DNA of 57,442 nucleotides, the filler included, from Candidatus Woesearchaeota archaeon (GTDB lineage: Archaea > Nanobdellota > Nanobdellia > Woesearchaeales > GCA-2685855), in assembly GCA_002685855.1 (NCBI GenBank). It is 4 parts of 4 records of this genome, joined end to end, with 100 filler letters (N's around TTAATTAATTAA, not from the genome) between each part and the next. Parts side by side here need not be neighbours in the genome. Positions count along the whole stretch, not along the records: positions 18,300 to 28,910 come from NYYS01000055.1; 3 more parts are not named here. One strand, written 5' to 3'. A model generated the notes under the pieces. That model searched no databases. It saw only the letters and a list, made by a program, of their open reading frames with translations, and had not been told where the DNA came from. Positions 28,704 to 46,196 of this stretch are shown here, in pieces; within the stretch, counting starts at the first letter, position 1, and each line of letters opens with the position of its first letter. A program made the position numbers and the translations under genes.

Positions 28704-28749
28704 CCTGAATAACTCTTCTCCTCCTTCCATCCCTTCTTTTCTTTCAATA

Positions 28750-28910
28750 CTTTCTCGTAGAGAAAGTTAGGAATGACTTAATGAGTATAGTTAGCCATAG
28801 GCTAACTTAGAAACTTTAGTTTCTATACTGAAAATAAAGAGTACTACGTCCTTTAGGGCGTAGGGTTTGAGTTCTTGGTTGTTGTAGAAAAGTTTTTCAG
28901 GGGCAGAGCC
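28750..28910. repeat. Structured non-coding repeat, copy 1 (runs into gap)
   Basis: Near-identical to 45903-46096; several hairpins with compensatory changes. Confidence 0.85.
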
Positions 28911-29010
28911 NNNNNNNNNNNNNNNNNNNNNNNNNNNNNNNNNNNNNNNNNNNNTTAATTAATTAANNNNNNNNNNNNNNNNNNNNNNNNNNNNNNNNNN
29001 NNNNNNNNNN
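28911..29010. other. Assembly spacer with artificial linker
   Basis: N-run containing TTAATTAATTAA (28955-28966). Confidence 0.97.
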
Positions 29011-30155: not shown

Positions 30156-30365
30156 TCTCACTCCTTTTTTAAACAATTTTTAATTCCTGCCTATTTAAAG
30201 CTTGTTGTACATCACGCCCATTCCCTCTATTTTATTACCTAAAAATCGCTGGGTTCAAAGCCCCGCTCTTCAGAGCGAGTTTTATGGTTCAAAAATCCGC
30301 CGATCAAGCGGATTTTGTTACTTCAGAATAGAAATCTTTAAAAAACACCAACTGTTCCCCTGTAA

Positions 30366-45902: not shown

Positions 45903-46096
45903 CTTTCTCACAGAGAAAGTTAGGAATGACTTAATGAGTATAGTTACTCAAAGAGTAACTTAGGAACGCTAGTGACTCTACTTTATCGAAGATAAAGTTA
46001 AGAACGATACTGAAAATAAAGAGTACTACGTCCTTTAGGGCGTAGGGTTTGAGTTCTTTTAGAAAAATTTTTCAGGGGCGGTGCCCCTGAATTGAG
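45903..46096. repeat. Structured non-coding repeat, copy 2 (runs into gap)
   Basis: Matches 28750-28910, with a longer variable segment carrying hairpin ACTTTATC-GAA-GATAAAGT. Confidence 0.85.
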
Positions 46097-46196
46097 NNNN
46101 NNNNNNNNNNNNNNNNNNNNNNNNNNNNNNNNNNNNNNNNTTAATTAATTAANNNNNNNNNNNNNNNNNNNNNNNNNNNNNNNNNNNNNNNNNNNN
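46097..46196. other. Assembly spacer with artificial linker
   Basis: N-run containing TTAATTAATTAA (46141-46152). Confidence 0.97.

Follow-up and report, generated by a model that had tools for sequence, protein, structure and literature searches.

The window analysed here is a stretch of 57,442 nucleotides made of four contigs, joined by N-linkers, out of the 66 contigs of a 953-kb assembly (94% complete) of a Candidatus Woesearchaeota archaeon. This genome is labelled G000 and its contigs carry C-numbers; other G-numbers denote further genomes. Two related sequences in the window lie at contig ends, copy 1 at the end of C55 and copy 2 at the end of C56. As a first-pass annotation had stated, both adjoin assembly breaks, since the N-linkers there join separate contigs. 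That annotation had described one structured element in two copies. The shared blocks, both covarying stems and the loop-only change on which it relied were all found at their positions, but the element itself proved to be a composite: the 5' half of each copy is a head-to-tail stack of short units of 38–40 bp, two in copy 1 and three in copy 2, and the 3' half is the left end of an insertion sequence (IS) (Table 1). The supposed swap of one hairpin between the copies was not borne out, copy 2 instead carrying a third, truncated unit. The G-T-containing hairpin is present and belongs to the IS left end as its subterminal hairpin. The TTGAG said to follow two hairpins directly follows the second, and three extra bases intervene after the first. 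Both copies folded better than shuffles (z −4.8 for copy 1 and −2.3 for copy 2); the minus strand of copy 2 also reached z −5.1, so that folding energy picks no strand.

Table 1 Features of the two copies and of related repeats (positions count along the window unless a genome is named)
Feature	Location	Strand	Basis or remark
Left half of host target palindrome, ends CAAT plus one base	28738..28749	+	matches the half-site consensus that flanks solo units and IS ends
Double-hairpin unit 1, copy 1; GTA loop in hairpin A, tandem G.A in hairpin B	28750..28789	+	model matches; register from boundary analysis
Double-hairpin unit 2, copy 1; hairpin B fully Watson-Crick paired	28790..28826	+	model matches, folding
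IS200-like left end, subfamily A, cut by contig end	28827..28910	+	100% identical to start of tnpA-bearing C4 copy and to ends on C15, C21; guide rule
Guide AGTA of copy 1 left end	28840-28843	+	guide rule
Subterminal hairpin of copy 1 left end	28844-28863	+	guide rule
N-linker, not biological	28911..29010	.	joins contigs C55 and C56
Double-hairpin unit 1, copy 2	45903..45942	+	model matches
Double-hairpin unit 2, copy 2	45943..45980	+	model matches
Unit 3, copy 2, truncated in hairpin B loop at CGAT, the IS start	45981..46008	+	hairpin A identical to solo units on C16, C26
IS200-like left end, hybrid of subfamilies A and B	46009..46096	+	begins as C4; final 35 bases identical to C50 element
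Guide of copy 2 left end	46022-46025	+	
Subterminal hairpin of copy 2 left end	46026-46045	+	
Second hairpin of copy 2 left end	46071-46091	+	
N-linker, not biological	46097..46196	.	joins contigs C56 and C57
PATE-like repeats carrying units	L171, L173-L177, L180, L220-L223 (G101); L226-L233 (G020)		

IS200-like element in the 3' half

The further copies that had been expected were found in G000 for both the IS ends and the units. The IS left end recurs at the ends of C15, C21 and C49, and on C4 and C50 it runs on into tnpA, a gene of about 150 codons that starts 190 bp inside the end; right ends lie on C12, C33, C40 and C58. The element is about 700 bp long, forms two subfamilies (A and B) and has no tnpB, and a relative with 60% identity is present in G005. 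Both TnpAs scored above the cut-off of PF01797 (Y1_Tnp) and reached 90 and 106 bits with NF033573 (IS200/IS605 transposase; cut-off 55), but failed the RAYT model with scores of 30 and 43 against a cut-off of 80. When cut sites were predicted from the four bases 5' of the hairpins (CTNT on the left, CCNT on the right), guide and cut site formed 3 of 3 pairs at six of the seven IS ends, the seventh having one G-T; a register with the cut one base later gave only 0–1 of 3. The IS608 control passed this test, and the third of its guide/cut-site pairs agrees with the published IS608 tetranucleotides. The other two are given in the accessible part of PMC5934647.

The top strand was C-rich at 11/11 IS loci (binomial p 0.001, or 0.016 when counted as 7 copies), and a fixed orientation along composition skew is what replication-coupled single-strand transposition predicts, according to the available portion of PMC5027513. 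Very strong long-range GC skew, up to 0.5, was seen on C18, C36, C9 and C51, accompanied by a bimodal third-position bias in genes that can be used to orient contigs. The IS flanks were compatible with the absence of target duplication. IS contigs had a depth of 29–34 against 5–6 for single-copy flanks; depth is not equal to copy number, and the values fit several collapsed copies. In the C4 copy the right-end hairpin is 24 bases short; two sequencing runs contain these bases, so the gap reflects assembly collapse. No joint of right and left end was found among the contigs of four runs, a form of data that drops rare forms. A contig from another study covers 45921-46088 with one difference and so crosses the stack/IS junction of copy 2, and the hybrid A/B left end was present as well in a sequencing run from another study. 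Elsewhere in the window, at 30255-30320, two IS200/IS605-style hairpins stand between divergent genes; this sequence is single-copy in G000 and is probably an IS remnant.

These results indicate that both 3' halves are left ends of a multicopy IS200-like element with tnpA only, an otherwise ordinary member of a known group that has an unusually long target. The likeness to IS200/IS605 ends suspected earlier therefore holds for the 3' half, and to that extent the claim of novelty falls, a match to an IS end having been named beforehand as the outcome that would remove it.

Double-hairpin units and their distribution

Each unit of the 5' half consists of hairpin A (7–8 bp, variable, beginning STT) abutting hairpin B (3 bp, tandem G.A, 2 bp and a short loop), and the two hairpins assort as mosaics among units. 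A model built from 8 units gave 18 matches in G000, occurring as singles, as pairs and as one stack running off C51. The units reside on an archaeal chromosome and have a GC content of 0.24–0.53. In one run a 70-base contig closed head-to-tail at a depth of 55.6, compared with 3.6–5.1 for single-copy pieces. A CRISPR array was ruled out, as the variable part, unlike a unique non-palindromic spacer, forms a perfect hairpin and recurs at several loci.

Among genomes of the same order, the first unit model matched 5/151, and a second, built from 33 matches, 20/151 (19/150 without the unpublished G131). The second model also matched 13/151 genomes of a phylum sample, all 13 belonging to this order, and a strict unit pattern occurred in 7/87 order genomes versus 0/314 other genomes of the class. 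In 101 relatives, a BLAST-type search returned weak matches only, one of which (G005) is a unit, and a G000-style tail pattern gave four other matches in 401 order genomes, fewer than its control. The strict tail pattern had no match in species-representative genomes and five loci in metagenomes, all 99.9–100% identical to G000 contigs and hence not independent copies; a general tail pattern had no match in viral contigs. The three DNA runs searched were each represented by a small share only. A long stack with a 41-bp period was seen in G274 (L027:926-1183), broken by an assembly gap and located just upstream of an IS200-like left end of opposite orientation.

In alignments of 33 and 52 units, 93–94% of cells were paired, a level reached in 0/500 shuffles and compared with 21–47% in slid controls, and both-sided changes occurred at 9 and 12 of 13 pairs, respectively; these alignments were fitted to the model and are biased towards it. 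Of 48 matches from relatives, 45 could be parsed; the tandem motif was GA/GA in 42 of them, and its retention over about 20 genomes suggests recognition by a protein. Their hairpin-B loops were GNYA (22), GNA (10), GNRA (3), AAA (3) or other (7), closed by C-G in 34 units. GNA and GNNA loops closed by C-G are described, in the part of PMC13037366 at hand, as DNA mini-hairpins whose stability far exceeds that of the RNA equivalents, and by their loop sequences the units would suit DNA mini-hairpins rather than RNA GNRA loops. Of 8 units folded with nearest-neighbour DNA parameters, 7 did not form hairpin B, whereas 5 of these did so on the plus strand with RNA parameters; folding energies gave no separation of DNA from RNA, so the DNA reading stands on loop identity and not on energy.

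Strong covariation and folding would also be expected of a single structured non-coding RNA or a stand-alone guide scaffold of the HEARO/omega kind, as the annotation had proposed. We regard this as highly improbable, given that the element is a composite of separable parts and that its loops avoid GNRA. Rfam at the gathering score found one tRNA in the window and nothing, HEARO included, on the element, and 11 loci searched at E up to 1 gave three sub-threshold, unrelated matches. Neither TnpB (PF07282; control matched in 8 genomes) nor IscB (NF040563; control matched weakly in 9) had a match in the 94% complete G000, and in a search of G000 with PF14239 the control was silent too. TnpB omega-RNAs arise from the right end of their element, and the segment here is the left end. 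In one RNA run, searched as contigs that represent a small share of it, no contig lay over the element.

Target palindrome, unit boundaries and RNA-gene insertions

In G000 the IS and the units share one target, the centre of a 24-bp palindrome upstream of promoters. The right flank starts with ATNG, which has a genome frequency of 1.5%, at 7/8 non-IS unit loci and 6/6 IS right ends, and left flanks of both end in CNAT or CTCT. A matrix derived from 23 half-flanks found 33 sites of at least 20 bits in G000 versus 0 in five local shuffles. Some of these sites are IS or unit junctions; most are empty and intergenic, lying about 50–90 bp ahead of a start codon and often separating divergent genes. 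AT-rich palindromes of 22–24 bp lie, for example, at C52:18462, C33:11256 and C25:3627, and at C18:25066-25170 a palindrome has a right half that starts like the IS left end and is followed by unique, hairpin-rich sequence in single copy. A 22-base form of the pattern occurred in 84/151 order genomes versus 6 for a control (82/149 without the unpublished G111 and G131), and this order-wide conservation upstream of promoters suggests that the palindrome is likely a host operator. A literature search confined largely to the main text of openly accessible journals found no account of the units or the palindrome.

Half-site scores were obtained both for the IS ends and for the tail of the G000 unit, and their junctions thus rebuild part of the palindrome. 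The target is unlikely to be a cruciform specific to each locus: rebuilt empty sites were palindromic in 59 of 105 cases versus 63 for shuffled half-site pairs, and this permutation result indicates a choice of consensus half-sites and not of perfect cruciforms. In relatives the target differs, right flanks mostly beginning RNTT, and 12/22 hand-picked junctions lay within a predicted hairpin loop compared with 26% of nearby positions. None of the G000 sites yielded a pair of empty and filled alleles. The most economical sequence for the two copies is that the units arrived first and the IS then landed on the rebuilt target.

That the units are instead cargo of the IS, with TnpA cutting at an outer CNAT, carrying the stack and later excising at an inner site to leave solo units, would account for the flank consensus common to both and for the position of both window stacks beside a left end (stacks adjoin 2 of 6 left ends with known flank and 0 of 6 right ends); flexible boundary choice by TnpA is also reported in the consulted part of PMC10055086. 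This hitchhiking scheme failed the test of orientation, which leaves it a slim chance. Non-IS units lay 5 on the G-rich and 4 on the C-rich strand, in contrast to the fixed orientation of the IS (Fisher p 0.008; 0.03 if the IS is counted as 7 copies). This speaks against units as IS passengers, as does their occurrence in genomes where no such IS was found.

Searches for another mobiliser gave little. Units stand near only 1 of 53 other Y1 (tnpA) loci; a Y1 gene (PF01797) was present in 8/19 further unit-bearing genomes, with no match in 11/19, and in 3/5 of another set that has two genomes in common with the first. No mobility gene recurring beside units was found, and no GIY-YIG gene in five unit-rich genomes. 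A search of G000 for Y2 transposase had no match, its control being silent too, and a TnpA search of viral contigs returned two distant loci.

To place the unit boundary, we considered cases in which the first bases on the left and right differ. The right first base paired with the last base of hairpin A in 11/17 cases, the left in 5 and neither in 1, a test that is weak alone; at position 2 the left base paired in 38/39. From these pairings, position 2 is the likely start of a unit, which would then bring its own final purine, and the same register restores a canonical T-loop in the tRNA cases described below. The final purine could equally close hairpin B round a bulged T, and so is no proof of a circle. 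In several relatives 12–28 bases of the target are nearly duplicated. A pure Y1 reaction makes no such near-duplications, and they point to a copying step during repair. At L193 (G002), L215 (G147) and L201 (G055), which represent three families, a unit sits at the 3' end of an ABC permease gene whose last codons are duplicated and still code for the same residues. At L210 (G232) several repeats of the 3' end of a tRNA gene are present; each folds back into a hairpin whose loop holds a unit tail together with an inverted one.

A unit interrupts the T-loop of a tRNA in G058, G002 and G147 and the 16S rRNA in G147, always in antisense. All four insertions are precise, and their bulge-helix-bulge (BHB) central pairs numbered 4/4 at three of them, the 16S included, and 3/4 at one tRNA. 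ARAGORN recognised the tRNA only after removal of the insert at the two loci run, and the third tRNA was read by eye; the tRNA-Pyl label that it gave L235 was not trusted, and further introns are likely there. In G232 a fifth unit forms part of a longer 16S insert. A permissive BHB scan also returned 4-pair central helices on the plus strand in 8/48 matches; because such helices arise by chance too, the intron claim rests on the exact restoration of the gene. The four copies are predicted to be spliceable BHB introns, and since their tandem G.A motif is kept on the non-RNA strand, a DNA element first and an intron second is the favoured sequence.

The reverse course, in which the units would be escaped BHB introns that move through RNA as spliced circles re-ligated into transcripts and then copied back to DNA, seems to us improbable. 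It draws on the coincidence of splice sites with insert ends in the four predicted introns, on several non-tRNA units that start with the bases needed for T-loop pairing, and on the folding of hairpin B under RNA parameters; the conserved structure, however, lies opposite to the RNA strand in those genes, most matches are intergenic without a minus-strand BHB, and no reverse transcriptase was found in G000 by a search whose control gave a match.

Possible modes of spread and relation to known systems

With a probability of roughly 55%, each copy is an IS200-like left end behind a unit stack whose units are likely independently mobile single-stranded DNA elements, moved in trans by a Y1/HUH-type transposase. 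The earlier label of a non-autonomous mobile element suits these 5' units, and a Y1/HUH enzyme acting in trans is our best guess for the candidate mobiliser. Several results count against this reading: no mobility gene was found to recur next to units, many unit-bearing genomes gave no PF01797 match and only one further Y1 locus has units close by, units show neither the orientation bias nor the guide motif of the IS and are apparently cut one base later, DNA folding mostly leaves hairpin B unformed, and the near-duplications in relatives do not fit a pure Y1 reaction. In such a mechanism, the unit would fold into two abutting hairpins, a nicked dumbbell, and be cut one base inside the foot of hairpin A. 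The cut unit would then be joined into exposed single-stranded DNA, frequently in a hairpin loop or at R|NTT, with no fixed target duplication. As a unit junction would itself resemble a target, new units would stack onto old ones. The preferred site in G000 would be the centre of the promoter-upstream palindrome, which the IS also uses, and since the IS ends and the unit tail rebuild half-sites, the IS would settle against the right-hand side of stacks already present. A copy within a tRNA or rRNA gene would persist only if the antisense insert formed a BHB and was spliced out.

Host replication and repair might spread units with no dedicated enzyme, hairpin-driven template switching and folded-flap ligation expanding the stacks and copying the conserved tail to sites of short homology. 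The resemblance of the unit start to the right flank (4.3 of 8 versus 3.2 for permuted pairs), the near-duplications at gene ends and starts in relatives, the hairpin A/B mosaics, the head-to-tail contig at about tenfold depth and the lack of a mobiliser in our searches all suit this account, which we hold to be unlikely, although less so than the cargo and RNA routes. It does not explain why G000 units without homology to their flanks are yet centred in one palindrome, and the tandem G.A kept in some 20 genomes again suggests a protein.

Returning to units moved in trans, a wider proposal is that a nicked-dumbbell DNA of about 40 bases is a complete minimal mobile element of DPANN archaea, which an HUH enzyme would read through the tandem G.A hairpin and aim at a host operator palindrome that is partly rebuilt, growing polar stacks and seeding BHB introns in tRNA and rRNA genes. 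We offer this as tentative and are inclined to doubt it in full. The units would rank among the shortest prokaryotic mobile elements, and the IS subfamily appears to land on an order-wide promoter palindrome that it partly rebuilds.

Comparison with known systems separates the two halves. The 3' half alone resembles the IS200 group and IS608, which have a Y1 TnpA, subterminal hairpins, a four-base guide 5' of each hairpin, a target kept on the left and an orientation fixed along composition skew (PMC5934647 and PMC5027513, both in part). IS608 needs only a tetranucleotide, according to these excerpts, whereas the G000 IS targets the middle of a 24-bp host palindrome and bears half-site look-alikes at both ends.

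The units resemble REP, REPIN and BIME sequences or mitochondrial double-hairpin elements, but fall outside the definitions of both, and they differ from PATEs too. Like REPs, as the accessible text of PMC3733652 and PMC6006769 describes them, they are extragenic hairpins of 20–40 bp that cluster, conserve stem mismatches and insert into other repeats. Unlike REPs, in our alignments they have no GTAG or CGTC tag at the hairpin foot, they consist of two abutting hairpins in head-to-tail stacks only, they number tens and not hundreds of copies, and no RAYT stands beside them; in archaea only IS200-type TnpA has been found, within what we could consult of PMC6006769. The double-hairpin elements of fungal mitochondria are likewise short, composed of two adjacent hairpins, presumed mobile, mostly intergenic, occasionally located in rRNA genes and without a known enzyme (PMC10085805, available portion). 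They are organellar with more than 75% GC, whereas the units are archaeal with 25–50% GC, tandem G.A and polar stacks, a distinction drawn by description and not by sequence. PATEs, the non-autonomous IS200/IS605 derivatives of PMC10055086 (seen in part), are also ORF-less and palindromic, and are mobilised in trans, as is proposed for the units, but they retain left and right IS ends with guides, of which the units have neither. In G101 and G020 units occur inside larger, ORF-less palindromic repeats of this kind, 250–350 bp long with IS200/IS605-like ends and one unit mid-repeat; the unit is far shorter than these hosts. In the G020 repeats it is found in both orientations relative to the outer arms. 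The variable duplications at units recall those of Replitrons, as far as the portion of the source at hand describes them.

The copies in RNA genes are akin to archaeal BHB introns of tRNA and rRNA (10.64898/2026.10.13.758758, in part): four copies in relatives have BHB-compatible ends and lie in a T-loop or a 16S loop. The accessible text of the same work reports that no general route of arrival was found for such introns in Asgard archaea. Here, in contrast to those introns, the intron sequence belongs to a dispersed repeat family that is mostly outside RNA genes, and because one family is both dispersed between genes and BHB-ended within RNA genes, the question of how short archaeal tRNA and rRNA introns arrive becomes testable; if the predicted introns are real, the units are a testable source, which if true would give archaeal introns a direct origin in mobile DNA.
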